Virus record (IMG/VR): IMGVR_UViG_2645727991_000020
Origin: a virus
Taxonomy: Duplodnaviria; Heunggongvirae; Uroviricota; Caudoviricetes
Strand: one strand, 5' to 3'
DNA: 17,248 nucleotides
Shown: piece after piece, positions 634 through 16,376 of the stretch
How positions within the stretch are numbered: the first letter of the stretch is position 1
Layout: every line of letters begins with the position of its first letter
Translations under genes and position numbers: made by a program
The notes under the pieces: model-generated
Database searches by the model: none
Seen by the model: only the letters and a program-made list of their open reading frames with translations
Told to the model about the DNA's origin: nothing

Positions 634-1217
634 TGGCATTCAGAATGAGTGAACAACCACGGACCATAAAAATTTATAATCTGCTGGCCGGAACTAATGA
701 ATTTATTGGTGAAGGTGACGCATATATTCCGCCTCATACAGGTCTGCCAGCAAACAGTACCGATATTGCACCGCCAGATATTCCGGCAGGCTTCGTGGCT
801 GTTTTCAACAGTGATGAGGCATCGTGGCATCTCGTTGAAGATCATCGGGGAAAAACCGTCTATGACGTGGCTTCCGGCGACGCGTTATTTATTTCTGAAC
901 TCGGTCCGTTACCGGAAAATGTTACCTGGTTATCGCCGGAAGGGGAGTTTCAGAAGTGGAACGGCACAGCCTGGGTGAAGGATACGGAAGCAGAAAAACT
1001 GTTCCGGATCCGGGAGGCGGAAGAAACAAAAAACAGCCTGATGCAGGTAGCCAGTGAGCATATAGCGCCACTTCAGGATGCTGTAGATCTGGAGATCGCA
1101 ACGGAGGAAGAAACCTCATTGCTGGAAGCCTGGAAAAAATATCGGGTGTTGCTGAACCGTGTTAATACAACAACTGCACCGGATATTGAATGGCCAACAG
1201 TACCCATTATCGAATAG
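633..1217 (+). CDS. tfa: tail fibre assembly protein (lambda Tfa family), 194 aa
   Basis: Protein [51 protein letters not shown]... is near-identical over its length to the lambda/TfaQ-type Tfa sequence as I remember it. The 194-aa length and position immediately after stf with TAATG coupling fit. Confidence 0.9.
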
Positions 1218-1290
1218 TGCATTACGAACTGCAGGATATTATATGGGATAATATTCTGCAGTTTATTGGGGCTGTATTTTAAAAAGGTGT

Positions 1291-2622
1291 TTATTTTGAG
1301 TGAATTATCACCTTGTTTTTTCCGGTTCTTTTGGCTTGATATAACGCTTTATCGGCATTGACTAACATTTCAGATGGGCTGAGATTATTCTCTTTTGAAG
1401 TAAAGCAACCAATGCTGACAGTTATTTTCTCAGGTCCATGCGATAATAATTTTTCCGAGCATTGCTCTTCAATGTTTTTTCTGATTCGCTCTGCAATTGA
1501 TAGCAAGAGCTTTTGAGTATTACCTTTAATGATAATACCGAACTCCTCACCGCCTAAGCGCCCTAATACATCCTCTTTCCTGATGGATTTTTTTATTATT
1601 CTGGTAACCATTACTATGACTTGATCACCCATATGATGCCCCCATTTGTCATTGATGCTTTTGAAACTGTCAATATCTAACATTATTACTGAGAAATCAT
1701 GGTGTTTTGATATATTCTTCAATGAGTCAATAAAGTATCTTCTATTGTATGTATTCGTTAGTGGATCATGAATTGCCATATGATTAGCATGATTTAATTT
1801 CCTGAAAACATAATACATGAGTGTTGAAATGATATAAATCATTGATATCAATTCAAGAAATTTTGTCATGTACCATGCAGGATGGGATTTATCAATAAAA
1901 TACAATAAAATTAGATTATTGCATACTGACACTATACTAATAAGTATTATACACAACCATATTTTTGAGTAATTACGTATGCTGATGCATGAGCTGATAA
2001 GTAATACAAGCCAAAATACTGATATTATTTTGGTATACACGATATTCCACGTCGGCAAATGACGATTCAGCGAGTATTGTATAATATTAAGGCTATATTT
2101 TATATTGTCACTGCTTAGATTTTTTGCTACAAACGGAGTAATAAAAAGAATTAATATTGACAAAACAACAATTATTATGTTTCTTTTATCTTCTAAAACA
2201 CTTTTATTTTTAACATTGGTGGAATAAACAGCCAGAAAGATTATAGATATAAAGCTGAACTGACGGAATAGATAATATATTGCGATATCATTTGATTTCT
2301 GATAGATTGTAGATAAATCGTTACCTAACGGAGATAAAGAAATAATAGCCACTTCTAATAAATAATACGTGTTGCTCAAAAACGCGAATGAAAGAATTAA
2401 GAGATAACTTTGTCTCTGATTAGAAACATAGTAAAGCAATAGAAAAATAAAAATCATCAGGTTTATGAAAAAAAGCCCAATAATGAAAATACTATAACTT
2501 ATTTGTGTTGTTTGTGTTATGTATATTCCATTATTTTCATGCAGTAACAAAAATATAATAGAGATGCATGAAAATAAAAAGATGAAGATTTTTATTTTTA
2601 TAGGTACCTGGTTGATAATCAT
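1291..2622 (-). CDS. membrane-anchored GGDEF-domain diguanylate cyclase with a multi-pass N-terminal domain
   Basis: 443-aa ORF. The C-terminal ~170 aa carry the GGDEF signature (RLGGEEFGI) with an RxxD I-site (RKED) shortly upstream. The N-terminal ~270 aa are strongly hydrophobic, consistent with about 6-8 transmembrane helices. The gene is visibly far more AT-rich than its flanks (GC not computed), so a long open frame here is unlikely by chance. Possibly related to prophage-borne DGCs such as DgcX of enteroaggregative E. coli, but I cannot confirm that from memory. Confidence 0.85.
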   Translation of the reverse strand: MIINQVPIKIKIFIFLFSCISIIFLLLHENNGIYITQTTQISYSIFIIGLFFINLMIFIFLLLYYVSNQRQSYLLILSFAFLSNTYYLLEVAIISLSPLGNDLSTIYQKSNDIAIYYLFRQFSFISIIFLAVYSTNVKNKSVLEDKRNIIIVVLSILILFITPFVAKNLSSDNIKYSLNIIQYSLNRHLPTWNIVYTKIISVFWLVLLISSCISIRNYSKIWLCIILISIVSVCNNLILLYFIDKSHPAWYMTKFLELISMIYIISTLMYYVFRKLNHANHMAIHDPLTNTYNRRYFIDSLKNISKHHDFSVIMLDIDSFKSINDKWGHHMGDQVIVMVTRIIKKSIRKEDVLGRLGGEEFGIIIKGNTQKLLLSIAERIRKNIEEQCSEKLLSHGPEKITVSIGCFTSKENNLSPSEMLVNADKALYQAKRTGKNKVIIHSK

Positions 2623-2872
2623 GTACGCACCTGAGAATGATATATATATAATATGTATCGCTACAAATAACGATAATTTCTTACTGGTGATAGTATACTA
2701 TTATTCTGGTTAATCGCTGTCAAATTGATGATTTTGGTTAGTATTGCAATAGCGAAGAGTTTGATCCGGTAAGACTGGCTAGGCAAGGCTATACCAAAAA
2801 ATCAGTGTAGGTTCAGAAAACGATGCACCATACAATCATCAATAATTTCAAATTGTCCATTGTGCATAAATC

Positions 2873-2915
2873 ATAAAGAAAACCGCAGCACGTCGTATGC
2901 AAGAACGTGCTGCGG
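2873..2915 (-). terminator. putative rho-independent terminator (minus strand)
   Basis: Perfect 11-bp inverted repeat ccgcagcacgt / acgtgctgcgg (2883-2893 / 2905-2915) with an 11-nt loop. On the minus strand it is followed by TTTTCTTT (plus 2873-2880). Confidence 0.45.
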
Positions 2916-3156
2916 TTGGCTGGTGAACTTCCGATAGTGCGGGTGTTGAATGATTTCCAGCTGCTACCGATTTTACATATTTTTGCCTGAGAGGATTTGA
3001 ACCGCCTCCACAGACTCTACATCACAGATAACCACTGTCACGAGGACTGTTAGTGCTGTGAGTTCAACGGGGCGATGTACGCTACCTTTAATCAAGAGGG
3101 AGAGGTACGTTGCTAAGATGAGTTTATATTCATCAACTAAGTGCAGATCAGCGAAT

Positions 3157-3200
3157 AACTAAAACTTGGCTGTCTGTGACAGGAACATCGATTGACAGCC
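3157..3200 (-). terminator. possible terminator hairpin downstream of the 1,182-aa gene
   Basis: Inverted repeat ggctgtc (3168-3174) / gacagcc (3194-3200) about 30 bp past the stop codon, followed on the minus strand by a weak U-rich tract (AAGUUUUAGUU). Weaker than the 2883-2915 hairpin. Confidence 0.3.
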
Positions 3201-3226
3201 AGTTTCTCCACATTTAGGTGTTTAGA

Positions 3227-6200
3227 TTAATCATCCTCTCCAATATTTAGATTGCTGATAACCTGTGCAGCTTCGTGGTCATAGCCAACCGCTAAATCTC
3301 TTAAGGTAACGGCGAATCGCTGAAAACCAGCGTTTTCCACTTCTTCTGCTTTTGCCCGGAACTGGTCAGCTAGCTCTCTCTCAGGTTTTCCTGTTGGATC
3401 AACACAATAAACACCTCGTGAGTTGTAGGCTCCTGTCATGTAGCCCCTGCGCATACTCTCAGCATCTCGATCGTTGAGAGCAGCTGCGACCTCTCGGTTT
3501 ATCCACAAGCCATTCGGATCGGAGGGAGTATAAATCAAGACTTCACCAACTTTGCTGAGTGCAACGTCCAGGTGACCTGATGCCGTAGAACCCTCCTTAA
3601 CTTTCTGAAGCCATTCAGTAAAGCGTTCTCCGTTGAACGTCCCATTTGATTGGCTTCCTGGCGGTGTCTTCCAGTTGTACAAAAGAGTCCAGGCATTTTT
3701 TGCGATTGCTTTCAATTCATCTGTTGGTTCACTTGTCATATTGTCTTCTTTGTCAGAACGATAAATGAGTTGGATTACTTCGCAGAAAAATTCTGGATCA
3801 TTAGCCATTTTATTCTCAAGGAACTTAGGCACAGCATCTTGGTGACCATCGAGCAATGGAAGGTAAGCCCACTCGATCTGAAAAAGATTATCCGGATTCA
3901 CTTTGGGATCAGTCTGAAGAAATTGGATAAGGGTAGTTATGTTGTAACCATCCATGTTGGAGCTAGATTCGTTAGTTGAAGTGGCAGCAAGCAAAGCGCG
4001 GATACACTGTTCAGTATCGATTGGCTGCTTTGTCTGATGCATCCTGCACAGGCAATTGATTGCCGCAAGTGGTCTGCCATGATCAATCAGCTTATCGATG
4101 GCACTAGTAAGATCACCTTCACCCAGGTCAGGATTTGCATCGGTGCGAGCCCAATATTCGTTCTCGGAAGCTTGAGGATAATGAGAGACTCGGGTCCAGG
4201 TCTCCTTGTTAAAAGGCAGATAAGCAAAGAATTGGCCTAACTGTTCAGGAGTCCAGTCAGCTTTATCCAGATTGTCGAACCACTCCCAGCCTTTGAGATA
4301 GAAACGCTTCCAAATAAAAGCGCTTACCAATGCCTTATACTTATTTTCTTTTGTATTGAGGAAACGGGGCAAAAGAAGTTTTTCGAACACATCATCGTTG
4401 ATAGTGCCGAGTACACTTCCTATTTGATGGGGCGCAGAAACGTGATCTGCAAATCGAATAACGCCTTCTGCGCCATCTTGCCTAAGAATTTCTGATATTG
4501 CGGATTCGCGCCTTGATTCGAGTTTATTTCTCCGTTCTTCCCAATCGCCATTTTCTAAGTAAAGATCAAAATCTCGATTTGAAAAAAGGTGCTGATATAA
4601 GTTGAATGGATTGGTAGGTGCCAGTTGCTCGGCAACATTTTCGATTTTGGTCAGCAGATCATCAGGTAAAGCCCAATTAGCATTAGAGAATCGCCGATGT
4701 TTATTTGCGAATCGATGAAGATGATCCCAAATTACAACTCGCTGCTCTTCATTAAGACAATTAATTGTTTCCGAAGAGAGGTGCTTAAGAAGATGTTCGA
4801 AAGCAGGAGATGGAAGGCTATCAAAATTATCAATCAACAAGGTAAGGCGTTCGATATCTTCTCCAGCGTTTTTGACGGCAAGCTCAGCATAAAAAGATGT
4901 CTGCAACCAGTAATCCTGATTAGTCACTTTGCTTTCCCAATCATCTGGGATTATTCGGCGCCAAGAGGGCTTGTGTGACCCAGAAGAGGTTTGATGGTGA
5001 CCGGGTAGAAGCTGGACGAGTAAATTCCAGGCAATGTCAGGCCATTCCTGCAAGATGACGTTGACTGCAACTTTTCGTTTTTCTATAGATGCCAGCGTTT
5101 GCGGAAACCACGGTAATAATATAGTAGTAAGCGAGTTAGATGGTCGATTAGCCCACTTGCCCCCAGGATCGTGGCTGGCAAGTTCGGCCAGTACAACACA
5201 GACGCGTACTAGGTATTGCTCATCCCAGGCTAATTCTTCTAGAGCCCATAGCAGTCCTGTCAGATAATTACCACCAGTGATACCATTTACTTCTTGAGAA
5301 AAAAGCTCATCAAATACACAAGGAGTCTGACGCATTGCCTTCTCAACTGCATCAAGAAATTTTGCAGGAGCTGCTTCAGCCAAAGTTGGTAGCAAACCGT
5401 TTAGGCTACCCCATAAAACCCAGTTTGCATCAGTCAAAATTGTATGTATTGCGACGTTAACGGAAGTTTCAGCATTCCCCTGAGAGCAGTTAACGCAAAC
5501 CTCTGGCCGACTCCCGATTATGGCTAAACCCTCTGCTATACCTTGTCGCAGCGTGGATGAAAACTTCAGCACCTTACCATGAATACTAGCAGCGTAACGC
5601 TCTTCAGCAGGTAATTCGAAAGCAGGGTCTGGCTCTTTGAGTACGGAAATCGCGGAAGACTTAAACAATTCAAGATTCTGATCAAAAATGCGGGATCCAA
5701 GAAGACTCCATAGCTCCATTCGATTTGTTACTTTCCAAATGCCGTTTTTTAGGGACAAAGGACTGTCTGGGCTATGTAAAATCTCTCGAGCCTTCCTTAG
5801 CCATTCGTCATAGCTGATACCAAGCAATTGGGTTAGTACATTTCGGTCACACTCATTTTTATCATTCCATTGCCCAATCAACACTGCTAAGGCTAAATAA
5901 GAGGCATCTGGGTGGTGAGTCCAGTCGGTTTTGACTACCGGTTGTACTAACCTCAACTTCTCAGGTATTTCAGCAATAACCCTTTGTTTGAAAACATCTA
6001 AAAGATCTTCAGGTAGCTTACTTGAAATGATAGTGCCAGCATCTTTATTCCAAGTTTGTACGATATCAACTATCCGCGACCAAACCCACTGAGGATACTG
6101 TTGATGGAATTGCGCTATGTGGGAGTGCAGCAAAGAAAGGACGACGCCTGATTCATTACCCAGATCGTACCCTAGTAAATGGAAATGGTTCAAAAAGTCA

Positions 6201-6775
6201 TAAAGCTCATCGTTTGTTAAATCGTTCCCACTGTTTGCCATCTTCAGATGAAACTGGATGGTCTCCAGTTTCTCAGTACTTTTAGGCGGGCTGAACTTGG
6301 CTTTTTGAACGTTCCTCAAAAATTCATCGACTGTTTTTGTGTGTCTAGCCTGATTCAATAACCAGAGCACATTGTGTGTATCGGTCGAACTGAGCGGACC
6401 GGTGATCAGTGCAATAACATCCTTGTTCTTGGTAAACAAGTCAGGATTGTTGAAATCGTTCCAAGCAGCCTGTATAACTTCCCCAAGTATCGCATTACCT
6501 TGCGTAAATGAAATAGAATGCTTTATTTGTCCTAATAGCTTCCGTTTTTCATTTCTGTTGAAATCTTTAACAACGACGATCAAGTCGTCGGTATCAAAAC
6601 CATCAATCTTGCCCTGGAGATTTATCTCCACTATGGGCCAACAAGGAAGACAAGGTGCATTACCGCCTGTTAGCATTAGAGCAACAAAAGACGCTTGGAC
6701 ATGTGCTTCAAAATGAACACCGCCTCCGCCTGTAGAAAAAGGATTACTCAAATTTTTTTTATTTGTCATTAACAA
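3227..6775 (-). CDS. large hypothetical protein (~1,180 aa), function unknown; candidate phage-defence or effector cargo
   Basis: Uninterrupted 3.5-kb ORF. The track start at 6775 is TTG; the first ATG is at 6769 (MTNKKNLSNPF...). Stop TAA at 3227-3229. I found no Walker A GxxxxGK[ST] and no other catalytic signature I can name. The N-terminus has a Gly-rich loop (STGGGGVHFEAH), a CxxC (CLPC) and an acidic-hydrophobic strand (GFDTDDLIVVVKD); a second CxxC (CVNC) lies near residue 430; the remainder is Trp/Leu-rich and probably helical. Product is unassigned. Confidence 0.85.
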   Translation of the reverse strand: MLMTNKKNLSNPFSTGGGGVHFEAHVQASFVALMLTGGNAPCLPCWPIVEINLQGKIDGFDTDDLIVVVKDFNRNEKRKLLGQIKHSISFTQGNAILGEVIQAAWNDFNNPDLFTKNKDVIALITGPLSSTDTHNVLWLLNQARHTKTVDEFLRNVQKAKFSPPKSTEKLETIQFHLKMANSGNDLTNDELYDFLNHFHLLGYDLGNESGVVLSLLHSHIAQFHQQYPQWVWSRIVDIVQTWNKDAGTIISSKLPEDLLDVFKQRVIAEIPEKLRLVQPVVKTDWTHHPDASYLALAVLIGQWNDKNECDRNVLTQLLGISYDEWLRKAREILHSPDSPLSLKNGIWKVTNRMELWSLLGSRIFDQNLELFKSSAISVLKEPDPAFELPAEERYAASIHGKVLKFSSTLRQGIAEGLAIIGSRPEVCVNCSQGNAETSVNVAIHTILTDANWVLWGSLNGLLPTLAEAAPAKFLDAVEKAMRQTPCVFDELFSQEVNGITGGNYLTGLLWALEELAWDEQYLVRVCVVLAELASHDPGGKWANRPSNSLTTILLPWFPQTLASIEKRKVAVNVILQEWPDIAWNLLVQLLPGHHQTSSGSHKPSWRRIIPDDWESKVTNQDYWLQTSFYAELAVKNAGEDIERLTLLIDNFDSLPSPAFEHLLKHLSSETINCLNEEQRVVIWDHLHRFANKHRRFSNANWALPDDLLTKIENVAEQLAPTNPFNLYQHLFSNRDFDLYLENGDWEERRNKLESRRESAISEILRQDGAEGVIRFADHVSAPHQIGSVLGTINDDVFEKLLLPRFLNTKENKYKALVSAFIWKRFYLKGWEWFDNLDKADWTPEQLGQFFAYLPFNKETWTRVSHYPQASENEYWARTDANPDLGEGDLTSAIDKLIDHGRPLAAINCLCRMHQTKQPIDTEQCIRALLAATSTNESSSNMDGYNITTLIQFLQTDPKVNPDNLFQIEWAYLPLLDGHQDAVPKFLENKMANDPEFFCEVIQLIYRSDKEDNMTSEPTDELKAIAKNAWTLLYNWKTPPGSQSNGTFNGERFTEWLQKVKEGSTASGHLDVALSKVGEVLIYTPSDPNGLWINREVAAALNDRDAESMRRGYMTGAYNSRGVYCVDPTGKPERELADQFRAKAEEVENAGFQRFAVTLRDLAVGYDHEAAQVISNLNIGEDD

Positions 6776-6914
6776 TCACATCCACATTTTGATTACGAAT
6801 AGATGAAAAAGAAGAGCACTCATACTTCAGAACTTATTCCACCTATATCTTTTAAAGACACTGTTATGCCTAGCATTTACGTAGATTAGCTAGCTCTCGG
6901 GTAATGACTCCAAC

Positions 6915-7418
6915 TTACTGATAGTGTTTTATGTTCAGATAATGCCCGATGACCTTGTCATGCAACTCCACCGATTTTGAGAACGACAGTGACTTCCGTC
7001 CCAGCCTTGCCAGATGTTGTCTCAGATTCAGATTATGTCGCTCAATGCGCTGCGTATATCGCTTGCTGATAACGTGCAGCTTTCCCTTCAGGCGTGATTC
7101 ATACAGCGGCCAGCCATCCGTCATCCATACCACGACCTCAAAGGCCGACAGCAGGCTCAGAAGACGCTCCAGTGTGGCCAGAGTGCGTTCACCGAAGACG
7201 TGCGCCACAACCGTCCTCCGTATCCTGTCATACGCGTAAAACAGCCAGCGCTGACGTGATTTAGCACCGACGTAGCCCCACTGTTCGTCCATTTCAGCGC
7301 AGACAATCACATCACTGCCCGGTTGTATGCGCGAGGTTACCGACTGCGGCCTGAGTTTTTTAAGTGACGTAAAACCGTGTTGAGGCCAACGCCCATAATG
7401 CGTGCACTGGCGCGACAT
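6915..7418 (-). CDS. insB: IS1 transposase InsB (expressed natively as an InsAB' frameshift fusion)
   Basis: 167-aa product ...[58 protein letters not shown]... matches IS1 InsB with a few substitutions. It overlaps the 3' end of insA as expected for programmed -1 frameshifting. Confidence 0.9.
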
Positions 7419-7612
7419 CCGACGCCATTCATGGCCATATCAATGATTTTCTGGTGCGTACCGGGCTGAGAGGCGGTGTAAGTGAACTGTAGTTGCCATG
7501 TTTTACGGCAATGAGAGCAGAGATAGCGCTGATGTCCGGCAGTGCTTTTGCCGTTACGCACCACGCCTTCAGTAGCGGAGCAGGAAGGACATCTGATGGA
7601 AATGGAAGCCAC
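7337..7612 (-). CDS. insA: IS1 protein InsA (zinc-finger DNA-binding regulator)
   Basis: 91-aa product [68 protein letters not shown]... matches IS1 InsA. Confidence 0.9.
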
Positions 7613-7667
7613 GCAAGCACCTTAAAATCACCATCATACACTAAATCAGTAAGTTGGCAGCATTACC

Positions 7668-9283
7668 AAATCATCAATAACGAAAGCTGGTTATGTTCTC
7701 CGTTAAGCGTTATCGGTACTGGCAGAGACGATAAAGACCAGTATCTCATTCTTCGCTGGCTGTCGTTTGGTTCTGAAACGCCGACAACCGCTGCCATTCC
7801 ACTGGCTGATATTGGTGAACGTGAAGGATGGCGCACACTTAAAGCTGGTGGGGTAAATGTCACGACCAAAAGCAGCCTCAGAGCAATACTGGCAGACTGG
7901 CTACAACGCAGTGGCTCTCGTGAATTGTGGCGTGTTGCTCATGCCACTGGCTGGCAATGCGGAGCGTACATCATGCCTGATGGGGAAATCATCGGAACAC
8001 CTGAAAATCCTGTGCTGTTCAGCGGGAGAAGCTCAGCCGCAGCCGGATATACCGTCTCAGGGAGCGCGAAAAGCTGGCGTGATAACGTGGCGCGTCTGGC
8101 CTTTGGTAACTATTCAATGATGACCGGGATCGGCGCAGCACTGGCAGCGCCATTGATTGGGCTGGTGGGCGCTGACGGGTTCGGCATTCATTTCTATGAG
8201 CAGTCGAGCGCAGGTAAGACCACCACGGCAAACGTGGCGAGCAGCTTATACGGCAACCCTGATTTACTGCGGCTGACGTGGTACGGAACCGCGCTGGGGC
8301 TGGCAAATGAGGCCGCCGCCCACAATGACGGACTAATGCCGCTTGATGAAGTTGGTCAGGGCGCTGATCCTGTCAGCGTTTCACAGTCTGCCTATGCGTT
8401 ATTTAACGGTGTAGGGAAACTGCAAGGCGCTAAAGATGGTGGAAACCGGGATCTAAAACGCTGGCGTACAGTGGCAATCAGCACCGGAGAAATGGATTTA
8501 GAAACATTTATCGCTACTTCCGGGCGAAAAACCAAAGCCGGGCAACTGGTGCGACTGCTGAATATTCCGTTGAGTAAAGCAGTACGCTTTCACGATTACC
8601 AGAACGGAAAACAGCACGCAGACGCACTGAAAGACGCTTACCAGCATCACCACGGCGCAGCCGGGCGTGAGTGGATTAAATGGCTGGCAGACCACCAGCA
8701 ACAGGCTATTAAAACCGTTCGTGATTGCGAAAGCAGATGGAGAAACCTGATCCCATCCGATTATGGTGAGCAGGTTCACCGTGTAGCCGCGCGATTTGCC
8801 ATTCTGGAGGCCGCATTGCTGTTAGGCGAGGTTGTAACAGGCTGGGATGCTCAGACATGCCGTGATGCGATACAGCACAGCTATAACGCATGGTTGCGCG
8901 AGTTCGGCACAGGTAACAAAGAACATCAGCAGATTATTGAACAAACGGAGGCATTTCTTAATGCCTATGGGCTTAGCCGTTTTGCACCATTTCCATACAG
9001 CCCGGCAGATTTGCCCATCAAAGATTTAGCCGGATACCGTCAGCGTGGAGAACATGACGAAAGCCCAATGATTTTCTACACATTCCCGGCCACATTTGAA
9101 AAGGAGATCGCATGTGGTTTCAACGCAAAACAGTTTGCTGAAGTGTTGAAAAAAGCCGGGATGCTAACCCCACCAAACAGCGGTCGTGGATACCAAAGAA
9201 AATCACCACGTATTCAGGGACGACAAATAAACGTTTATGTACTCAATTACCAGCCAGGAGATTATAACTCATCTGAAGAATGA
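7668..9283 (+). CDS. P-loop NTPase replication protein of mobile-element type (tentatively DUF927 family), 5'-truncated by IS1; probable pseudogene
   Basis: The track ORF 7493..9283 begins inside IS1. Native sequence starts at the IS1 boundary (7668) with no in-frame ATG until 7973 (IMPDGEIIG), yet the intervening 100 codons read as genuine protein. Walker A-like YEQSSAGKTTT and Walker B-like GLMPLDEVGQ are present. The gene ends about 20 bp before iteron cluster A. Confidence 0.6.
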
Positions 9284-9301
9284 GCTTCTTCATGTGCGTA
9301 G

Positions 9302-9422
9302 AAAAGGTGTTGGTTCAGTTGGTTCAGTTGGTTCAATTTATAAAGGGTATTGTTTTATAAGGATTTTATTCTTTTTATTGAACCAACACTGAACCAACAA
9401 CACGGTATTTTGAACCAACACA
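9302..9422. repeat. iteron cluster A (origin-like)
   Basis: Three tandem 9-bp repeats ttggttcag / ttggttcag / ttggttcaa (about 9310-9336), an AT-rich spacer of roughly 40 bp, then three inverted copies tgaaccaaca (9379-9420). Confidence 0.7.
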
Positions 9423-9469
9423 ATGTGACTGAATTGATGCGCACAACACCTGGCTGGCATCAGAGAGTG

Positions 9470-9546
9470 TTTTACGAGACTTTCGTAAAATCCTGTGTAC
9501 AAGGGCGTGACGTTTTTGAAAGTGAGCACTACGAAATTTTCGTAGT
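9470..9546. promoter_or_regulatory. pair of TACGA-N5-TCGTA palindromes (candidate operator sites)
   Basis: ttttacgaGACTTtcgtaaaa (9470-9490) and actacgaaATTTtcgtagt (9528-9546) share identical half-sites TACGA / TCGTA with 5-bp spacers, centres about 57 bp apart. Confidence 0.4.
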
Positions 9547-9737
9547 TCAAAAAACAGCCTCTGAGAAGTTGTTATGCCTGTTCAGCAAACCATCCGCATA
9601 GCTGATCGCGAATCAAATTACCAATGGAGCCAGAAGCAAGGGCAGAACTGAAAAGCGCCTGCCGTGAAGAGTAATGCGACACCATAAATATAGTTTTTAG
9701 AGTCCATAAAAAACCTGTCAAAACCTGACACACAGAA

Positions 9738-9773
9738 CGACGCCACCAGCTACTGAGCGGTGGCATTTTTTTG
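9738..9773 (+). terminator. putative rho-independent terminator (plus strand)
   Basis: GC-rich stem gccacc (9742-9747) / ggtggc (9759-9764) followed by a run of seven T (9766-9772). It sits between the iteron/operator region and the downstream operon. Confidence 0.45.
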
Positions 9774-9867
9774 TGCTATTTGTTTCATATTCTGCAATTA
9801 CGATGATGAATATTGCGATTTGTGAAACTATAATAACTGTTGTTTTATACAGTTATAAGGGGGCGTT

Positions 9868-10029
9868 ATGGCTATTTCAGTAAAGCCGGTATTGATAAGT
9901 GAGAAGCAAATGGAAGCGATAAAGAAAATTCAGGAAGAGCAGCGTAAAAAATCAGGAATTGGAGTAGCGCCAACTCTGCATGAAATTGCACGAGGGTTAA
10001 TAGATAAGGCGCTGGCAGGCTGTATGTGA
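9868..10029 (+). CDS. small hypothetical protein (53 aa), possibly a ribbon-helix-helix-like DNA-binding protein
   Basis: Not in the supplied track (below its length cut-off). ATG at 9868 with a strong Shine-Dalgarno AAGGGGG 6 nt upstream; product MAISVKPVLISEKQMEAIKKIQEEQRKKSGIGVAPTLHEIARGLIDKALAGCM; TGA at 10027-10029. It sits 16 bp upstream of the four-gene operon. The RHH assignment is a guess from the strand-then-helix pattern. Confidence 0.45.
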   Translation: MAISVKPVLISEKQMEAIKKIQEEQRKKSGIGVAPTLHEIARGLIDKALAGCM

Positions 10030-10045
10030 AAATGGATGGCATCGC

Positions 10046-10507
10046 ATGGAACTAAAATTTATTGATAACCCTGTGCGATTACAGGCCTTTCTTAACGAGC
10101 CAGGCAATACCGAAAATATTGTTGAGCCGGGGCACACGTACTACATCAAGCCTGATGCGGTATATCTCGGCATCTACGAAGGATTAGTGCTGGCTGGCGT
10201 TCATGAAGTGCGTAACTTCTGGCATAGCGTTGTTGAATGCCATGCGGTGTACGACCCCGGATTCCGTGGTGAATATGCACTGCAAGGGCATCGATTATTC
10301 TGCAAATGGCTTCTCGAAAACTCACCATTCCTTAACAGCATCACTATGGTTCCTGACACCACGAAATATGGACGGGCAATTATCCGTTTGCTTGGCGCTA
10401 CCCGTGTTGGTCACCTTGATGATGCTTATATCAGATGTGGTAAACCCGTCGGCGTAACGCTTTATCAGTTAACTCGGCAACAATATAAGGAATTCAGCGA
10501 ATGTTAA
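10046..10507 (+). CDS. hypothetical protein (153 aa), first gene of a translationally coupled operon
   Basis: ATG at 10046; its stop (TAA 10505-10507) overlaps the next start (ATGTTAA). No motif recognised. Confidence 0.7.
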   Translation: MELKFIDNPVRLQAFLNEPGNTENIVEPGHTYYIKPDAVYLGIYEGLVLAGVHEVRNFWHSVVECHAVYDPGFRGEYALQGHRLFCKWLLENSPFLNSITMVPDTTKYGRAIIRLLGATRVGHLDDAYIRCGKPVGVTLYQLTRQQYKEFSEC

Positions 10508-11178
10508 TTACCCATATAGCTCATAAACATCTCAATCGTGCCGTATACGAAAAAGGCGGTGATGGTGGTGCCTCTAAAGCTCAGGCGAAGGCCCAGCAGC
10601 AGGCAATTGATTTGCAGCGCGAGCAGTGGAATACGGTGATGAATAATCTCAAGCCGTATGCAGAAGTCGGATTGCCTGCTTTACAACAACTGCAAGGACT
10701 GATGACTCTGGAAGGGCAGAATAAAGCCGCGAATGATTTCTTTGGTTCTGGTTTATATAAAACACAGGCAGATCAGGCCCGTTATCAGAACCTTGTCTCA
10801 GCAGAAGCTACCGGGGGGCTTGGCTCAACAGCTACCAGTAACCAGTTATCTTCCATTGCGCCCATGCTTTATAACAATTGGCTCAGTGGGCAAATGCAAA
10901 ATTATGGAAACCTGCTAAATGTCGGGATGAATGCGGCATCAGGGCAGGCAACAGCAGGGCAAAACTACGCCAATAATACCGGGCAACTCTTGCAGGGGCT
11001 TGGCGCTATTCGTGCAGGTCAGGCGCAGCAGCCATCCAGTCTTGCGCGTGGTATTGGTGGGGCGGCATCAGGCGCTTTAGCGGGTGCGCAACTTGGTTCC
11101 GTTGTTCCGGGTATAGGTAATGTCGCCGGGGCTATTGGTGGTGGGCTTATTGGTCTTGTTGGGGGGCTTGGATTCTAA
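10501..11178 (+). CDS. hypothetical protein (225 aa) with Gly-rich hydrophobic C-terminus; possible virion ejection/injection protein (P22 gp7-like by size and position)
   Basis: Start overlaps the upstream stop; C-terminus GIGGAASGALAGAQLGSVVPGIGNVAGAIGGGLIGLVGGLGF is membrane-active-like; Gln/Ala-rich low-complexity middle. The homology call is inference only. Confidence 0.7.
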   Translation: MLITHIAHKHLNRAVYEKGGDGGASKAQAKAQQQAIDLQREQWNTVMNNLKPYAEVGLPALQQLQGLMTLEGQNKAANDFFGSGLYKTQADQARYQNLVSAEATGGLGSTATSNQLSSIAPMLYNNWLSGQMQNYGNLLNVGMNAASGQATAGQNYANNTGQLLQGLGAIRAGQAQQPSSLARGIGGAASGALAGAQLGSVVPGIGNVAGAIGGGLIGLVGGLGF

Positions 11179-12599
11179 TGGCGACATGGCAACTTGGCGG
11201 GCTGCCTAGCATGGCACCGCAAAATGATAATGCTCCTCGTTCTTCCGTTCCTCAGCCTGTGCAGTATCAGCAGCACCCAAACGTAGGTTTAATGGCGCTA
11301 CAGGGGCTAAGAGGCGTTGCTGAGATTAATCAGCAGGCACGTCAACAACAGCGTAAAGCAGAGTTTCAGAAAGCATATGCCGGGGCTTTTGAGTCTGGAG
11401 ACAGAAACAAAATGCGCAGTCTTATTTCTGAGTATCCAGAAGAATTTGAAAGCGTTCAGAAAGGGATGGGCTTTATTGATGACGACCAGAGAAATTCTAT
11501 TGGTCATCTTGCGACTAGTGCTCAAATCGCATCTTCGCTCGGAACTGGGGCATTTGGAAAATTCATAGCAGATAACGAAGATGAAATGCGTCGCTTGGGA
11601 ATTTCTCCTGAGTCTGTTGCCGAAATGCATGTTAATGATCCACAGGGATTCCAGCGGCTTGCTGGTAGTATGGCACTGTTTTCTCTCGGTCATGAGAAGT
11701 ATTTCGATATCAAAGATCAAATGGAAGGTCGGGATATTGAGCGTGGCAAGTTGGCAGAGACAATCCGCAGCAATCAGGCTGGCGAAGCACTTCAGGCGAG
11801 AGGGCAGGATATTAGCCGAGCAAATGCGTTAACGTCAGCATATGCACCAACAGCAGCAATGCAGAATTACAATCAGTACGCTCAAATGTTAAAGGCGGAT
11901 CCAGAGGGGGCGGCGGCATTTGCGGCAGCGGCTGGAATTAATACAAACGCCAAAAAATTAATGAGTGTTAGAGAAAACGATGATGGCACTGTCACAAAAT
12001 ACTACACAGACGGAAGTGAAGAGCAGGGAAAACTAAACCAGCCAATATCTGGAGATGGGTTTCGTCCAATAGCTTTGCCAACAGCCCAAAAGATCATGGA
12101 AAAGTCGCCAGAAGGGGCTAAAAAAGCTGCTGGATTTGCATACAGGGTTAGGGATGCTCTTGATTCAATAGATACACTGAAAGACCAGCTTAGCCCACAG
12201 CGAGTGGCGATCATTAATAATGCTTTGGGTAATGGGACGCTGGCTAACTTAACGCTCAGCCCAACAGAGCAGCAATACGTTGTTAATGCTAATGACGCAA
12301 TAATGGCAATACTCCGTCAGGAAACAGGGGCAGCTATCGCACCTGCTGAAATGTCAAAATATTATCAAATGTATTTCCCTCAGCCTGGCGACTCCACAAA
12401 AACCATTGATACCAAGCGCCGGAAGATGGAAAACCAGTTCAATTCGCTGAAAGCTGCTTCTGGTCGAGCTTATGATGCTTTGCGGGTTATTTCAGCAGTT
12501 GACAGAGGAACTTCTTCTTCGTCGCAGACATTGCCGCAATCTGAGCAGGTATCACAGCCAGCAGCCAGCAGTAACTTTTCTTCACTATGGGGTGATTAA
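11178..12599 (+). CDS. hypothetical protein (473 aa); possible virion ejection protein (P22 gp20-like by size and position)
   Basis: TAATG overlap with the upstream gene; hydrophilic, Ala/Gln/Glu-rich. The size matches my recollection of gp20 at about 471 aa. Inference only. Confidence 0.7.
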   Translation: MATWQLGGLPSMAPQNDNAPRSSVPQPVQYQQHPNVGLMALQGLRGVAEINQQARQQQRKAEFQKAYAGAFESGDRNKMRSLISEYPEEFESVQKGMGFIDDDQRNSIGHLATSAQIASSLGTGAFGKFIADNEDEMRRLGISPESVAEMHVNDPQGFQRLAGSMALFSLGHEKYFDIKDQMEGRDIERGKLAETIRSNQAGEALQARGQDISRANALTSAYAPTAAMQNYNQYAQMLKADPEGAAAFAAAAGINTNAKKLMSVRENDDGTVTKYYTDGSEEQGKLNQPISGDGFRPIALPTAQKIMEKSPEGAKKAAGFAYRVRDALDSIDTLKDQLSPQRVAIINNALGNGTLANLTLSPTEQQYVVNANDAIMAILRQETGAAIAPAEMSKYYQMYFPQPGDSTKTIDTKRRKMENQFNSLKAASGRAYDALRVISAVDRGTSSSSQTLPQSEQVSQPAASSNFSSLWGD

Positions 12600-14704
12600 T
12601 GGCTAAAGCATGGAAAGATGTTATCGCCTCTCCACAGTATCAGGCGTTAGCACCAGAACAAAAAGCGCAGGCTCAGGAGCAATACTTCAATGAAGTCGTT
12701 GCCCCGCAAGCCGGAGAAAGTGTAGAGCAGGCTAAGCAGGCTTTTTATGCTGCCTATCCACTACCATCAACGAATGAAATAGACCGATCCCAATCAGCAA
12801 CTCAAAATATTCAACATACATCATCTGATAATTCTCTTGCGTCAGGGTATGCAAAGTTAGCTACTCAGCAAAGAGAGGGGCTTGAGCGTTCAGCAGAACA
12901 GGGAGCCAGTCTTGGGGCTGCGATGCGCGATGCTATAACAGGCGAAAGCCGAATGACTCCAGAGATGGAGAGACTGCAAAATGTCACCTCTGCCCCAGAA
13001 TTGAACTCACTAAGCATGGATGCCCTAAAGGCTGGATGGTCTCAACTTTTCGGCTCTGACGCGTCTCAGGAAAAGATTCTTCAGGGAATGGGGGCGACAT
13101 TAAGGCAGGATGAGAAGGGGAATACTATCGTTTCTCTGCCATCAGGTGATTATGCCCTGAACAAGCCGGGTTTATCACCGCAAGACCTGACTTCGTTTCT
13201 TGCTAATGCGTTGGCGTTTACACCAGTGGGCAGGGCTGGAACGGTGCTTGGTGCCATAGGAAAATCAGCAGCTACAGATTTAGCACTACAGGGAGCCACC
13301 AGCCTTGCTGGTGGAGAAGATATTGATCCGTTACAAACGGTAATTTCTGCTGGCATTGGTGGTATTGGTAAGGGGCTGGAAAATACAGCGAGTGCGGTTT
13401 CGAGGGCTGTTCGTGGTGATATGTCGCCTGAAGCAAAGGCTGCTGTCGACTTTGCATCGGAAAGAAATCTGCCGTTAATGACCAGTGACATGCTGAAAGA
13501 TAAAACCTTTATGCAGAGTCAGGCTCAGACATTAGGCGAAAGAGTTCCTTTTTTTGGAACCGGTAAGAATCGGCTGAATCAACAACAAGCACGAGAAAAT
13601 TTAGTCAGAACATTTAGCGATGGTCTGGGTGGCATTTCTGATAAACAGCTTTATGAATCTGCGACTAAAGGGCAACAAAAATTCATTGAGGCAGCAGGAA
13701 AGCGATATAACCGCATAATTGACGCTATGGGGGATACCCCTGTCGATCTCTCAAACACGGTAAAAGCTATCGACAATCAGATTGCCGTGTTAAGCCGCCC
13801 GGGCAAATCTCAGGATAGAGCCGCGGTAAAAGTCTTGCAGCAATTTAAAGACGATATCACCAGCGGACCAAATGACCTGCGTCTGGCGAGGGAAAACAGA
13901 ACCGATCTTCGAAAGCGATTTATGGCGTCATCTGACACTGTTGATAAAGATACGCTCCAGAAAGCCAGCGATATTATCTACAAGGCATATACGGCGGATA
14001 TGAAAAAAGCCGTAGCCAAAAATCTTGGAGCAGACGAAGCCATTAATATGGCAAGGGTTGATCGCTCATGGTCTAAATTCAATGATATGATGGGAAGAAC
14101 GCGCGTTCAAAAGGCAATAGCCAGCGGCAAGGCCACGCCTGAGGATGTAACAAAACTCGTTTTTAGCCAAAGCCCATCAGAACGTTCTCAGCTTTACAGG
14201 CTTCTGGATGACAATGGTAGGCAAAACGCACGAGCAGCCATAGTTCAGAATGCTGTAGATAAGGCGACTGATCCGTCTGGAAATATCAGTGTTGAGAAGT
14301 TTATTAATGCGTTACACCGGAACAGGAAGCAATCAGCAACTTTCTTTAAAGGCGTACATGGAAAGGAACTGGACGGCGTTATTAAATACCTCAACGATAC
14401 AAGACACGCGGCAAAAGCGAACGTTCAAAACTTAAATGGTCAGCAGCTTTATGGATTGTTAGTTGGTGGTGGCATCATAAACGCAGCAGTATTAGCGGGG
14501 ATGCTAAAAACGGCTGCGTTTGTTGTTCCTGCTGCTGGTGCCGTAGGCGGAGCAGCGAAGGCATACGAAAGCCCTGTTATACGAAATGCCTTGTTACGTC
14601 TGGCAAATACGCCAAAAGGTAGCACAGCATATGACAGAGCGATCAGTACGGTCACACAATCGCTCACCAGAGTCGCACAGGCATCACAAAAAGAAGCTCA
14701 ATAA
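12599..14704 (+). CDS. hypothetical protein (701 aa) with C-terminal hydrophobic segment; possible virion ejection protein (P22 gp16-like by position)
   Basis: TAATG overlap with the upstream gene; a hydrophobic stretch LYGLLVGGGIINAAVLAGMLKTAAFVVPAAGAVGGAA lies near the C-terminus; stop TAA at 14702-14704 is followed by a hairpin and T-run. Confidence 0.7.
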   Translation: MAKAWKDVIASPQYQALAPEQKAQAQEQYFNEVVAPQAGESVEQAKQAFYAAYPLPSTNEIDRSQSATQNIQHTSSDNSLASGYAKLATQQREGLERSAEQGASLGAAMRDAITGESRMTPEMERLQNVTSAPELNSLSMDALKAGWSQLFGSDASQEKILQGMGATLRQDEKGNTIVSLPSGDYALNKPGLSPQDLTSFLANALAFTPVGRAGTVLGAIGKSAATDLALQGATSLAGGEDIDPLQTVISAGIGGIGKGLENTASAVSRAVRGDMSPEAKAAVDFASERNLPLMTSDMLKDKTFMQSQAQTLGERVPFFGTGKNRLNQQQARENLVRTFSDGLGGISDKQLYESATKGQQKFIEAAGKRYNRIIDAMGDTPVDLSNTVKAIDNQIAVLSRPGKSQDRAAVKVLQQFKDDITSGPNDLRLARENRTDLRKRFMASSDTVDKDTLQKASDIIYKAYTADMKKAVAKNLGADEAINMARVDRSWSKFNDMMGRTRVQKAIASGKATPEDVTKLVFSQSPSERSQLYRLLDDNGRQNARAAIVQNAVDKATDPSGNISVEKFINALHRNRKQSATFFKGVHGKELDGVIKYLNDTRHAAKANVQNLNGQQLYGLLVGGGIINAAVLAGMLKTAAFVVPAAGAVGGAAKAYESPVIRNALLRLANTPKGSTAYDRAISTVTQSLTRVAQASQKEAQ

Positions 14705-14708
14705 CTGG

Positions 14709-14731
14709 TTAGCCATGGATGGCTAATTTTT
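14709..14731. terminator. putative terminator shared by the convergent operon and membrane-protein gene
   Basis: Palindrome ttagccat-gg-atggctaa (14709-14726) followed by TTTTT (14727-14731), directly after the stop of the 701-aa gene and overlapping the stop of the minus-strand gene. Confidence 0.4.
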
Positions 14732-15142
14732 GTTCTTTGCTCTCATCCATAGGTAAAGAAGGGAAAGAACAAGACAAAAAACAGAGAATAGATAACCTAC
14801 CTCATATGGTGCGCCAAAAAAATTAGCTATTGATACGGGCAAAAAAGCTGAGGCGATCAAAATTGAAAGGCAAAAAATAAGCCCAGTAATATAGTTTATT
14901 AAATTCTTAAATGAGAAACGTTTTGCTTGATTTACGGTCTTAACGAACGATCGCTTAACGACGGATAAAAGCAAATAGATGGCGACAGTTGCTAATGCCC
15001 CTTTCCACCAGTCTGGATATAGTTTTGCGACAATCAGACCAAGGAAAACCATGATGACAGCCTGAGCATTCACACCAACCCTCCCTTTAGCTTTGTTTAG
15101 AATGGCAATCATCATATATCCAAGACATGGCATTTGGTACAT
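14723..15142 (-). CDS. small integral membrane protein (about 115-139 aa); candidate superinfection-exclusion-type moron
   Basis: Three to four hydrophobic helices (VIMVFLGLIVAKL, ATVAIYLLLSVV, ITGLIFCLSILIASAFL, LFSVFCLVLSLLYLW). The likelier start is an in-frame GTG at 15073, preceded by AGGGAGG, rather than the track ATG at 15142. Convergent with the operon. Confidence 0.6.
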   Translation of the reverse strand: MYQMPCLGYMMIAILNKAKGRVGVNAQAVIMVFLGLIVAKLYPDWWKGALATVAIYLLLSVVKRSFVKTVNQAKRFSFKNLINYITGLIFCLSILIASAFLPVSIANFFGAPYEVGYLFSVFCLVLSLLYLWMRAKNKN

Positions 15143-16106
15143 AGCTTGGGTCGGGATTTCAAATCCGATCCCCGTTGATGGGGCCGTTACAGTACGCGCA
15201 TATCCGCTTTATGTGAAACAGGAAGATTTTTCTGATATCACTGCCACAGCAAAACACCAATTTCGAGACAAGTACGCGCGCGAGGGGTATCAGTTGCAAA
15301 AAATTTTGCAACTACGTCCGACCAGTATGCACACGATGGCGGAGGGATACCATAAAACTGTTCTCTACATGAGACAGAGTGGTGGTGATGTGTTGATTAT
15401 CGGCGTATATGCGCACAGGACGCGCTATGACGATGTTTTATGCGGGTACACCAATCACATGTATCTGGTGTGATAAATCGCGTTACATGACCTCTCATGT
15501 TGTACTGGTGGTTATCACGACGTTCTGAATCTGGCCTTTGCCTGGTATTTTGCGACAAGTACGCGCGCGTAGCATCGAAATAATCGGATGGCGTATGCTG
15601 CTGGTAATATGAAGACCGATAGCATTAACCGTAAGGAGAAAGACTTCTCGATAACGGCAAGGGGGCTGAATTGCGAGGCGAGATTAAGCAACTGTCTTGA
15701 ACGTAAAAATCATGGAGCAACATGATGGTACGATTCATTCCATTCTTCGTTCTTTCTGAGCATTGCGTTCAGGCTTAGTCAAAATTAGTGTTGCGAGCGG
15801 ACCTATTAGTAATTGTTGGTGCGATGCGTCTGTTATGGATTGTTATGGTTGTGGCAGGCCTGATTAATATCCAGTATGACCACCAGCTATGAGAGGCCAC
15901 CTCAGTGGTTCGCAGTTGCAGGTTTGCACTCAGGTTCGCAGGGTTTTGGCTACTTTCACGTGCGAACCTGCAGAATTGCAAAGGACAACTAAGTCCTCTG
16001 GCCAACTCCCGGTTTATGAGCGACACAGTCCGCCTGGCGCATCGTTTTCGTCGAGTGCGCCCATCAGCTTGTCCATGGACTATCCACCACTCGATATTAA
16101 AGCTAA

Positions 16107-16292
16107 TCATTGGTTGCCAGCCCGCGAATCAAGTTTGTTCTGGATCCAAGCTTCAACCTCCTCAAGCGACCATCTAGCTGATCTACCAATTTTAACTGGC
16201 TGTGGAAACGTGCCCGTCTTAACCCATGAGTAGATTGCCGTTTTCTTGAAGCCCGTTCTGAGCATGACTTCGCTTAATTTGATAAGGCGCAT
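16107..16292 (-). CDS. alpA: AlpA-family phage regulatory protein (MerR-like DNA-binding / excisionase-type)
   Basis: 61-aa product MRLIKLSEVMLRTGFKKTAIYSWVKTGTFPQPVKIGRSARWSLEEVEAWIQNKL has the AlpA helix-turn-helix signature. A strong SD (GAGGAG) lies upstream of the ATG at 16292. Confidence 0.85.
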   Translation of the reverse strand: MRLIKLSEVMLRTGFKKTAIYSWVKTGTFPQPVKIGRSARWSLEEVEAWIQNKLDSRAGNQ

Positions 16293-16341
16293 AGAGGCTC
16301 CTCTGCTTTAGATTAAGCATAGTGACAATCTGGCTTTGGGT

Positions 16342-16376
16342 GGTATCCAAAAGCGAGGTATCCATGTTGGTATCCA
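16342..16376. promoter_or_regulatory. three direct GGTATCCA repeats in the alpA upstream / divergent promoter region
   Basis: GGTATCCA at 16342-16349, 16357-16364 and 16369-16376 (spacing 15 and 12 bp), 50-85 bp upstream of the alpA start. A second direct pair TTCACGCA lies near 16455-16475. Confidence 0.35.

Follow-up and report, generated by a model that had tools for sequence, protein, structure and literature searches.

A probable IS1-associated deletion scar within a tandem of two mobile elements at thrW in Escherichia coli

Introduction

The window analysed here, a 17,248-nucleotide stretch of DNA filed as a Caudoviricetes virus (IMG/VR record IMGVR_UViG_2645727991_000020), contains a single IS1 that separates the upstream region of a large prophage gene from the interior of a replication gene, and raises the question of how one insertion sequence came to hold together two flanks that share no target-site duplication. 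Insertion sequence copies that lack such a duplication have been ascribed to adjacent deletions or to recombination between copies (PMC11708052). Here, we compare the window with related genomes and conclude that it very probably bears the mark of an IS1-associated deletion within a tandem of two mobile elements, which we call prophage A and island B, at the thrW tRNA gene.

Results

The IS1 and its two junctions

The element between the two flanks has the following parts:

6900..7667, minus strand (transposase genes): complete IS1 of 768 bp, recognised by its length, inverted repeats, insA, A6C motif and InsAB' frame
6900-6922: IRR, facing the cargo gene
7645-7667: IRL, facing the primase remnant
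7337..7612, minus strand: insA, 91 aa, intact, with a GTG start at 7612
7355-7361: A6C motif for -1 frameshifting, from which the insB' frame runs on to 6915
6891..6899: left junction 9-mer tagctctcg, identical in L008, L010, L012 and L014-L022
7668..7676: right junction 9-mer aaatcatca, equivalent to positions 9001-9009 of L002, at codon 381 within the primase-helicase gene, identical in L018-L022

The terminal inverted repeats, GGTAATGCTGCCAACTTACTGAT and GGTAATGACTCCAACTTACTGAT, match at 20 of 23 positions, and the fused InsAB' reading frame of 232 aa is open from end to end and matches the Pfam family DDE_Tnp_IS1 (PF03400, E=1e-74). With 99.6% identity to annotated IS1 copies, and with the same CDS labelled by RefSeq in relatives as 'IS1 family transposase, programmed frameshift', the window IS1 is apparently intact and functional. 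Our sequence check agreed with the initial annotation that the IS1 ends are intact at 6900 and 7667 and that the flanking 9-mers differ. No direct repeat of 5 bp or more occurs in the 30 bp next to the IS1 on each side, and an 8-9 bp duplication, which marks a simple insertion and is not a feature of the element as such, had therefore not been overlooked through miscounting. Beyond 6899, relatives continue with TAAGCAATGG..., a stretch that is missing from the window.

Both junctions are identical base for base in five independent assemblies, one of them a metagenome; across ~17 kb, these assemblies differ by 6-14 SNPs. The left junction is also seen at six additional contig ends. Since five independent assemblies have both junctions in common, the structure is real and inherited within a lineage, and is not the artefact of one assembly. 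Neither junction turned up when 5,426 complete E. coli genomes were searched with 70-base queries that spanned them, and exact-junction scans of a species-representative genome collection and the JGI metagenome collection gave no match; linkage across the IS1 is known from draft assemblies, with neither junction in any closed genome examined.

The right arm is the remainder of an integrative island

To the right of the IS1, the window contains:

7668..17248, plus strand: the right-hand part of integrative island B that has survived, with 99.95% identity to the CFSAN061761 thrW island
7668..9283, plus strand: primase-helicase remnant, residues 382-918 of 918, identical in amino acids to the intact CFSAN061761 copy
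8204-8224: Walker A/P-loop motif SSAGKTT in the primase-helicase remnant
9308..9420: iteron cluster 1, origin-like, in which (T/A)GTTGGTTCA repeats, three of them direct and three inverted, surround an AT-rich spacer
16809..16931: iteron cluster 2, also origin-like, which repeats cluster 1 in inverted form

Homology to the CFSAN061761 island begins exactly at 7668, inside a 918-aa gene that is annotated elsewhere as 'TOPRIM and DUF927 domain-containing protein' and is intact in hundreds of E. coli genomes. The first 1141 nt of this gene are gone from the window, which bears out the earlier reading of the right flank as the interior of a P-loop replication gene without its native start; in IS1-free relatives the gene starts 1141 nt further upstream. 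The family of the 918-aa protein is defined by a Zn-ribbon, a Toprim domain and DUF927 (phrog_1139). The intact relative has its Zn-ribbon at residues 34-69 and its Toprim domain at 221-318, both of which are lost from the window copy, while the remnant matches DUF927 (PF06048, E=9e-47) over profile positions 22-282 of 284, the N-terminal edge of the domain having lost ~16 residues. A second truncation, suspected from the 'DUF927' annotation in UTAK-8, was ruled out, as the UTAK-8 gene is full length. Iteron cluster 1 lies directly downstream of the primase stop codon, and the (T/A)GTTGGTTCA repeats amount to 17 matches where 1.3 would be expected.

According to annotation in relatives, the left-hand genes of the intact island encode an integrase, an AlpA-type regulator, an antirepressor, ash and an Icd-like protein, all of which are absent from the window; downstream of the primase-helicase gene the intact island has P22-type ejection genes and then attR. 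On the source contig, island B reaches its native attR ~1.7 kb past the window end, where attR TCCTATTATCGCACCA is followed by the flank TTAAAATCAAAGAG..., the same as in the intact island. Literature searches returned nothing that describes this island family or tandems at thrW.

The left arm is the late end of a lambdoid prophage

To the left of the IS1, the window contains:

1..2984: lambdoid prophage late end, with the 3' part of a tail fibre gene and a tail-fibre assembly gene
1291-2622, minus strand: MASE4-GGDEF diguanylate cyclase gene, within the lambdoid late end
2873..6899: cargo module, which 8 complete E. coli genomes also have, at 99.5-99.9% identity, as the right end of prophages in the thrW region
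3227..6769, minus strand: 1180-aa prophage cargo gene, with a RefSeq-style ATG start at 6769

The start codon of the cargo gene lies 130 bp from the IS1 end. The initial annotation had placed a 1,182-aa gene at this position; the location was correct, and the length reflects a mechanical TTG start where the ATG at 6769 gives 1180 aa. Sequence searches of Pfam, NCBIfam, PADLOC and PDB gave no match for the cargo protein, its sole match being phrog_18693, of unknown function, and a scan of an IS-free relative revealed no recognisable native promoter for the gene. A stretch near 2985-3010 that resembles a tRNA proved not to be one, and the sole Rfam match was an unrelated one, to IS009. The contig starts 6.9 kb to the left of the IS1 and the left end of prophage A is off it, so that its position at thrW in the source strain is inferred from relatives.

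The two arms were neighbours in a tandem at thrW

The thrW tRNA gene is evidently the attachment site shared by prophage A and island B: when present alone, prophage A terminates in a 46-bp thrW fragment, after which comes the chromosomal flank that also borders island B. Using a synthetic query composed of the end of A, the att site and the start of B, and requiring a full-length match, we found intact A-B tandems in the order and orientation of the window in 148 complete genomes. In strain 6409, for example, J, lom, stf, tfa, cargo, att and int are followed further on by intact primase and ejection genes, again ordered and oriented as in the window. The retention of the native attR and flank, together with the intact tandems in relatives, indicates that the window is a deletion derivative of such a tandem. 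We found no genome with the exact ancestor, an A-B tandem carrying this cargo module, and in none of the 8 complete genomes that have the cargo gene does island B lie beside it.

The comparison with IS1-free related genomes that had been proposed as a check recovered intact tandems of the ancestral type and the missing 5' portion of the replication gene. The view that IS1 had fused two unrelated mobile elements stands as far as the fusion is concerned, but the elements did not come together from afar, being tandem neighbours at thrW. Likewise, of the deletion, inversion or recombination between IS1 copies previously considered, a deletion agrees with our results, and inversion is excluded because neither arm has changed its ancestral orientation with respect to the other or to the chromosomal flank. 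In relatives, the two flanks do not adjoin, yet they are collinear and co-oriented, and the missing interval is present in undeleted genomes, as is expected of an adjacent deletion. We estimate the deletion at 8-11 kb, of which 7.6-8.4 kb belonged to island B and included the integrase, the regulators and the Zn-ribbon and Toprim parts of the primase (codons 1-380); the end of prophage A and the hybrid att site were also lost. The tandem ancestry, the deletion, its endpoints and lost content, and its inheritance in the lineage are documented.

These losses bear on the proposal that inactivation of the replication initiator immobilises the second element. Island B does appear to be disabled, but damage to the primase would be only part of the cause, and immobilisation is expected to follow mainly from the loss of the integrase, of attL or the hybrid att site, and of the regulators.

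Sister lineages carry a series of deletions from a nearby IS1

Sister lineages have an IS1 that lies 189 bp further out than the window IS1 and is oriented like it. This copy, referred to here as the +189 IS1, has one fixed left junction in 6 genomes and four different right junctions, located at an AraC-family gene, an IS remnant, ykgJ and fdeC, none of which has a target-site duplication. Such a one-sided series of nested endpoints is what IS1 adjacent deletions are expected to produce, and is their classic signature. Nested endpoints are known for the +189 copy, while the position of the window IS1 has a single known endpoint.

Discussion

We propose that the ancestor would have carried prophage A, ending in the tail-fibre genes, the GGDEF gene and the 1180-aa cargo gene, then the 46-bp thrW fragment as a hybrid att site, and then island B with its integrase, AlpA-type regulator, antirepressor, ash, 918-aa primase-helicase, ejection genes and attR. 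Most likely, the IRL end of an IS1 located 130 bp upstream of the cargo gene attacked a target in the primase gene 8-11 kb away. Such an attack would be an intramolecular replicative transposition, or adjacent deletion, in which the intervening DNA leaves as a circle, one IS1 is kept, and two unrelated flanks remain with no target duplication. As a consequence, island B would have become a fixed passenger of prophage A. That a transposase rather than homologous recombination was responsible, and which of the two junctions is older, are points we infer from the sequence.

Homologous recombination could also account for the deletion. In this scenario, IS1 would have inserted twice independently by simple transposition, upstream of the cargo gene and in the primase gene, with the copies in direct orientation, and RecA-dependent recombination between them would then have deleted the interval and left a hybrid IS1. 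We consider this possible but unlikely. The product would be identical, with one IS1, mismatched flanks and arms in ancestral orientation, so that sequence alone does not separate it from intramolecular transposition; inter-IS recombination is a recognised cause of target-site duplication loss (PMC11708052), and E. coli genomes often carry many IS1 copies, with a median of 11 places per genome. Nevertheless, this route costs three events against two, and for the +189 IS1 it would need a separate second insertion for each of the four endpoints. Moreover, the two-copy state predicts the junctions IS1-IRL + TAGCTCTCGTAAGCAATGG and GTGGAGAAATCATCA + IS1-IRR, and neither predicted simple insertion, flanked by a duplication of any length from 6 to 12 bp, was present at either site in 5,426 complete genomes or two large contig collections. 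As no simple-insertion intermediate was found, the order of events was not observed.

The window IS1 and the +189 IS1 have the same orientation and differ at 3 of 768 bases, within the 0.1-0.5% divergence of the flanking DNA, and the +189 copy is demonstrably prone to deletions. The two could therefore be one and the same copy, with two successive deletions, one extending rightwards into the primase gene and the other reaching 189 bp leftwards, towards the cargo gene. However, every documented +189 deletion is on the IRL side and none has been seen on the IRR side, and the event count is no lower than that of an independent insertion plus one deletion, which makes a common copy improbable.

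The mosaic structure of the left arm might suggest that it was moved beside island B from elsewhere, for instance from the bio/ybhB att site, by recombination between IS1 copies such as a large inversion or a translocation and with no local deletion, since the greatest similarity of window positions 1-2984 (99.2%) is to the end of a prophage that other strains carry at ybhB-bio and the prophage's own location lies beyond the contig. We regard this as very unlikely. The segment that touches the IS1 (2873-6899) is found in the thrW-pao region, in the same orientation, in all 8 complete genomes that carry the cargo module, and thrW lambdoid prophages with J-lom-stf-tfa in tandem with island B are common. 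Exchange of a late-end module through the shared 2873-2984 would explain the mosaic more simply than translocation.

We also considered whether the junction created a functional gene, that is, an expressed helicase-only protein made of an IS1 leader and residues 382-918, with a selected role such as interference with related islands. Two further features are relevant:

7493..9283, plus strand: mechanical fusion ORF, 596 aa from a TTG, running antisense through insA into the remnant
7654..7681, plus strand: weak candidate hybrid promoter, with -35 TTGGCA in IRL, a 16-nt spacer and -10 AATAAC in the flank

The frame is indeed open from 7493 inside the IS1 into the truncated gene, as first noted. 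However, only one of the three outward frames is open at the IRL end, so this openness is a 1-in-3 coincidence and unremarkable. Gene callers start the ORF at ATG 7532, giving 583 aa; this variant was matched in an exact-protein look-up and a 590-aa variant was not. The remnant is undamaged, its Walker A motif and C-terminal part are intact, and the two iteron clusters are retained as potential binding sites. In addition, formation of hybrid promoters by IS1 is known (Prentki et al. 1986, as cited in PMC9330008). Against a selected gene, the known insA promoter in IRL, which points inward, was all that the strict promoter scan at the IS1 detected, with no consensus promoter reading outward. 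The candidate -10, AATAAC, lacks the invariant final T and failed the stricter scan, and a transcript from it would begin downstream of the IS1-internal start codons, close upstream of whose ATGs we saw by eye no Shine-Dalgarno-like sequence. The next in-frame starts after the IS1 are TTG 7925 and ATG 7973, the latter leaving 436 aa, and the DUF927 domain is clipped in the remnant. That the remnant shows no decay tells us nothing, since the arm as a whole has 99.95% identity to intact islands. A selected fusion gene is accordingly highly doubtful. Also highly improbable is the idea that the helicase-only remnant, expressed from an IS1/flank hybrid promoter, may bind the two retained iteron clusters, or those of related islands that arrive, and block replication dominant-negatively; if true, IS1 would have created an immunity factor against sibling satellites, which could explain the undamaged remnant in this lineage.

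Finally, the join is almost certainly not the work of an assembler bridging separate IS1 copies through the repeat, as might be feared with a draft source and with 9 related short-read contigs that end at or within the window IS1, because assemblers normally break at unresolved repeats and would not be expected to converge on one wrong pairing in five assemblies, and because some E. coli carry a single IS1 (places_in_record = 1), through which a short-read contig passes unambiguously.

A deletion mediated by IS1 has well-known precedents. The classical deletions of the gal region are reportedly IS1-mediated adjacent deletions (Reif and Saedler, 1975). The window resembles such deletions in that the IS1 is retained intact, the deletion starts exactly at the IS end and there is no target-site duplication, and the +189 copy resembles them in its nested endpoints from one fixed junction. 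Unlike deletions selected in the laboratory, the event in the window would have taken place in nature and is reconstructed from natural isolates. At the same locus, K-12 carries CP4-6, a cryptic prophage at thrW with several IS elements, including IS1. Compared by locus, the two are alike in lying between proA-thrW and pao/ykgJ/ecp, in prophage DNA riddled with IS elements and truncated genes; unlike CP4-6, the window has a lambdoid late end with the GGDEF gene and the 1180-aa cargo gene, plus an island with primase and ejection genes.

Island B also bears some parallels with phage P4, whose alpha protein is a large primase-helicase acting with iteron sites at ori and crr, and whose satellite relatives share a core of integrase, alpA, alpha primase, psu, delta, sid and epsilon. 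The intact 918-aa protein is like alpha in combining an N-terminal Zn-binding/Toprim primase with a C-terminal P-loop helicase, and island B is like P4 in its two separated clusters of short iterons in cis and, in intact relatives, in the placement of the primase gene in an integrase/AlpA/ash/Icd-type island. Although these relatives are annotated with an integrase, an AlpA-type HTH protein, ash, an Icd-like protein and a primase, we do not file island B as a P4-like satellite. Its helicase part is a DUF927 domain with only a weak Cch1-like match, and its iteron sequence differs from that of P4. The window remnant, moreover, differs from alpha in having no primase half.

Prophage decay driven by IS1, as seen here, is of an ordinary, well-understood, textbook kind in E. 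coli, and this scar opens no new question. Its value is as a clean and fully reconstructed natural example of an IS1 deletion scar. It also cautions that a draft-genome gene call, such as a 583-aa 'DUF927 protein' starting inside an IS1, can be the annotation artefact of a scar. The one-sided nested deletions beside the cargo gene in sister lineages form a natural data set that is useful for studying how IS1 makes deletions, and the window illustrates how a tandem at the thrW attachment site and a single IS1 would turn two independent mobile elements into one fixed chimera.

Results

The window, in which the right end of a lambdoid prophage (A, left arm) meets part of an integrative island (B, right arm) across an IS1, very probably derives by deletion from an A-B tandem at the tRNA gene thrW, given that island B keeps its native attR, that A and B share thrW, and that intact tandems exist.

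Features of the window, in window coordinates
1-2984: tail fibre, tfa and MASE4-GGDEF diguanylate cyclase genes
2873-6899: cargo gene module, with the 1180-aa cargo gene
6891-6899: left flanking 9-mer, tagctctcg
6900-7667: complete IS1, transposase genes on the minus strand; 768 bp, terminal inverted repeats matching at 20/23
7355-7361: A6C frameshift motif, 232-aa InsAB' frame open
7612, minus: GTG start of insA, 91 aa
7668-7676: right flanking 9-mer, aaatcatca
7668-9283, plus: remnant of the island B primase-helicase gene
8204-8224: Walker A motif, kept in the remnant
9308-9420: origin-like iteron cluster 1, three direct and three inverted (T/A)GTTGGTTCA iterons flanking an AT-rich spacer
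16809-16931: origin-like iteron cluster 2, of the same composition

On the source contig (JHSU01000015.1 of assembly GCA_001266125.1, of which the window is positions 2-17249, and whose end falls within a tail-fibre gene), island B terminates in attR (TCCTATTATCGCACCA), next to which come TTAAAATCAAAGAG... and the LysR'/pao flank. The intact island has the identical end and flank, so the remnant lies in its native place and orientation. Lone prophage A ends in a 46-bp thrW 3' fragment and then the same flank; both elements use thrW. A synthetic tandem query (A right end, 46-bp fragment, B left end) found full-length matches in 148 complete genomes, and strain 6409 carries J-lom-stf-tfa-cargo-att-int...intact primase-ejection genes in the order and orientation of the window. 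The lost DNA comprises 0.2-3.5 kb of A past 6899, as judged from relatives, the hybrid att site, and 7.6-8.4 kb of island B. The initial annotation had offered deletion, inversion or IS1 recombination; deletion stands, and inversion is ruled out by the ancestral relative orientation of both arms.

Five independent assemblies (L018-L022), one of them metagenomic, agree base for base at both IS1 junctions, and six more contigs share the left junction and then end inside IS1. Together with the 6-14 substitutions over 16-17 kb that separate the five long contigs from the window, these shared junctions show a structure inherited within a modestly diversified lineage. Neither junction occurs in any of 5,426 complete E. 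coli genomes.

The descriptive parts of the initial annotation all held. The IS1 whose ends it reported as intact is complete, including insA and the InsAB' frame, matches Pfam DDE_Tnp_IS1 (E=1e-74), and shares 99.6% identity with IS1 copies annotated in other E. coli. The reported lack of a target-site duplication is no counting error, since no direct repeat of at least 5 bp lies within 30 bp on either side. The open frame said to run from IS1 into the truncated gene exists as a mechanical ORF at 7493-9283. Of the three frames leading outward from this IS1 end, only one is open, for 175 nt, and the other two run into stops 15 and 23 nt away from it, so the in-frame junction is a one-in-three chance. 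A strict promoter scan found solely the inward insA promoter in IRL, and a relaxed scan gave TTGGCA-16-AATAAC (7654-7681), a candidate without the invariant final T, whose transcript would begin past the ATGs internal to IS1. The in-frame starts that follow are TTG 7925 and ATG 7973, the latter leaving 436 aa. Published work documents IS1 as forming hybrid promoters, not as carrying a complete outward promoter (PMC9330008). The 583-aa 'DUF927' gene call of draft assemblies is best regarded as an annotation by-product.

Homology to island B, which is present in 580 of 5,426 genomes, begins exactly at 7668, and 7668-17248 is 99.95% identical to it. In CFSAN061761 (L002) the intact island directly follows proA-thrW and reads integrase, HTH/AlpA, antirepressor, ash, small ORFs, a 918-aa 'TOPRIM and DUF927' protein, P22-type ejection genes, PerC and a pRiA4b-ORF3 gene. 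The 918-aa protein matches phrog_1139 ('DNA primase') and contains Zn_Ribbon_Prim (residues 34-69), Toprim_3 (221-318) and DUF927 (365-643). The window retains residues 382-918, identical in amino acids, with the first base of codon 381 now supplied by IS1; neither primase domain is left, and DUF927 has lost its first ~16 residues. The Zn-ribbon and Toprim domains were looked for and are absent, and for this reason the remnant is not classed as a functional primase-helicase. Nor is island B classed as a P4-like satellite, its left half being deleted in the window.

The (T/A)GTTGGTTCA motif has 17 matches against 1.3 expected. The two clusters, mutually inverted around the 7.5-kb ejection-gene block in an arrangement similar to P4 ori/crr, are both still present despite the truncated initiator, the first starting 25 bp past the primase stop codon. 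The ejection/injectosome genes themselves (DUF2824, gp7, Inj_translocase/gp20-like, gp16-like; 10046-14704, L002 11379-16037) adjoin the integrase/AlpA/antirepressor/ash/primase module; neither capsid nor tail genes were seen in island B, and no description of the island was found in the literature searched. After the gp16-like gene, segment 14705-15100 varies among island copies, UTAK-8 having a different small gene there. Relative to the window, one gap is present in each of the five sibling assemblies.

In the left arm, positions 1-2984 share 99.2% identity with the right-hand end of a lambdoid prophage that other strains carry at the bio/ybhB att site, and are connected to the thrW-type cargo module through a common ~110-bp segment (2873-2984); this join is ordinary lambdoid mosaicism. 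Within the tail-fibre assembly gene, 976-1174 (+) gives a full-length match to Rfam IS009 at 225 bits. Among 5,426 complete genomes only 8 carry the cargo module; in each it sits in the thrW-pao region, at a prophage's right end and oriented as in the window, and all eight run on past the equivalent of 6899 with TAAGCAATGG... Searches of Pfam, NCBIfam, PADLOC and PDB gave nothing for the cargo protein (3227-6769, minus), which matches only phrog_18693, of unknown function; the GC content of its gene, 40-49%, is below the about 51% of the E. coli chromosome. In the IS-free relative SC418 (L006), ~135-bp direct repeats, 88% identical, bracket the module (7483-7618 and 12073-12212), which suggests that it may itself be an insert into the prophage end; the window keeps one copy (2880-3015), the second being deleted.

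The IS1 stops 130 bp short of the cargo gene ATG, on the upstream side, and no consensus promoter for this gene was found in the window or the IS-free relative. Three independent IS insertions in different lineages fall within 190 bp upstream of this gene (6770-6899; relatives L004, 10556, and L001, 8690 / L003, 10690): IS1 at +0 (window), ISSen4 at +54 (A28) and IS1 at +189 (six genomes). At ~38% GC this stretch is AT-rich, and the clustering could stem from a target hotspot or from selection on expression of the gene.

Discussion

An IS copy without a target-site duplication at a deletion junction points to IS-mediated adjacent deletion or to recombination between two IS copies (PMC11708052). 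If the window arose by deletion, we lean towards the former: intramolecular replicative transposition by IS1 would produce an adjacent deletion and leave a single IS1 at the junction without a duplication. Our main reason is the nested, one-sided series that sister lineages show at the same locus, a pattern that adjacent deletion predicts. There the +189 IS1, 189 bp farther from the cargo gene, has the orientation of the window IS1, one invariant left junction in six genomes, right junctions that vary (AraC-family gene, IS remnant, ykgJ, fdeC), and no duplications at these junctions. Recombination between two IS1 copies would require a separate second insertion for each of those endpoints, and we consider it unlikely; it keeps a minor share of the probability because no IS1 intermediate flanked by a duplication was found at either site in searches that included 5,426 complete E. 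coli genomes. The window IS1, which differs from the +189 IS1 at 3 of 768 bases, is either an insertion in its own right or the +189 copy once a further deletion, towards the left, had taken place.

The proposal that the replication initiator was inactivated is borne out, with a stronger effect than envisaged: besides the primase catalytic domains, the deletion removed the integrase, left att site and regulators of island B. The island retains attR, the ejection-gene block and the two iteron clusters, but can neither excise nor start its own replication. That a putative helicase-only remnant is expressed and acts on the kept iterons, or on incoming sibling islands, seems highly improbable. The window IS1 is a further instance of the well-known IS1 deletion scar and of IS-driven prophage decay at thrW.
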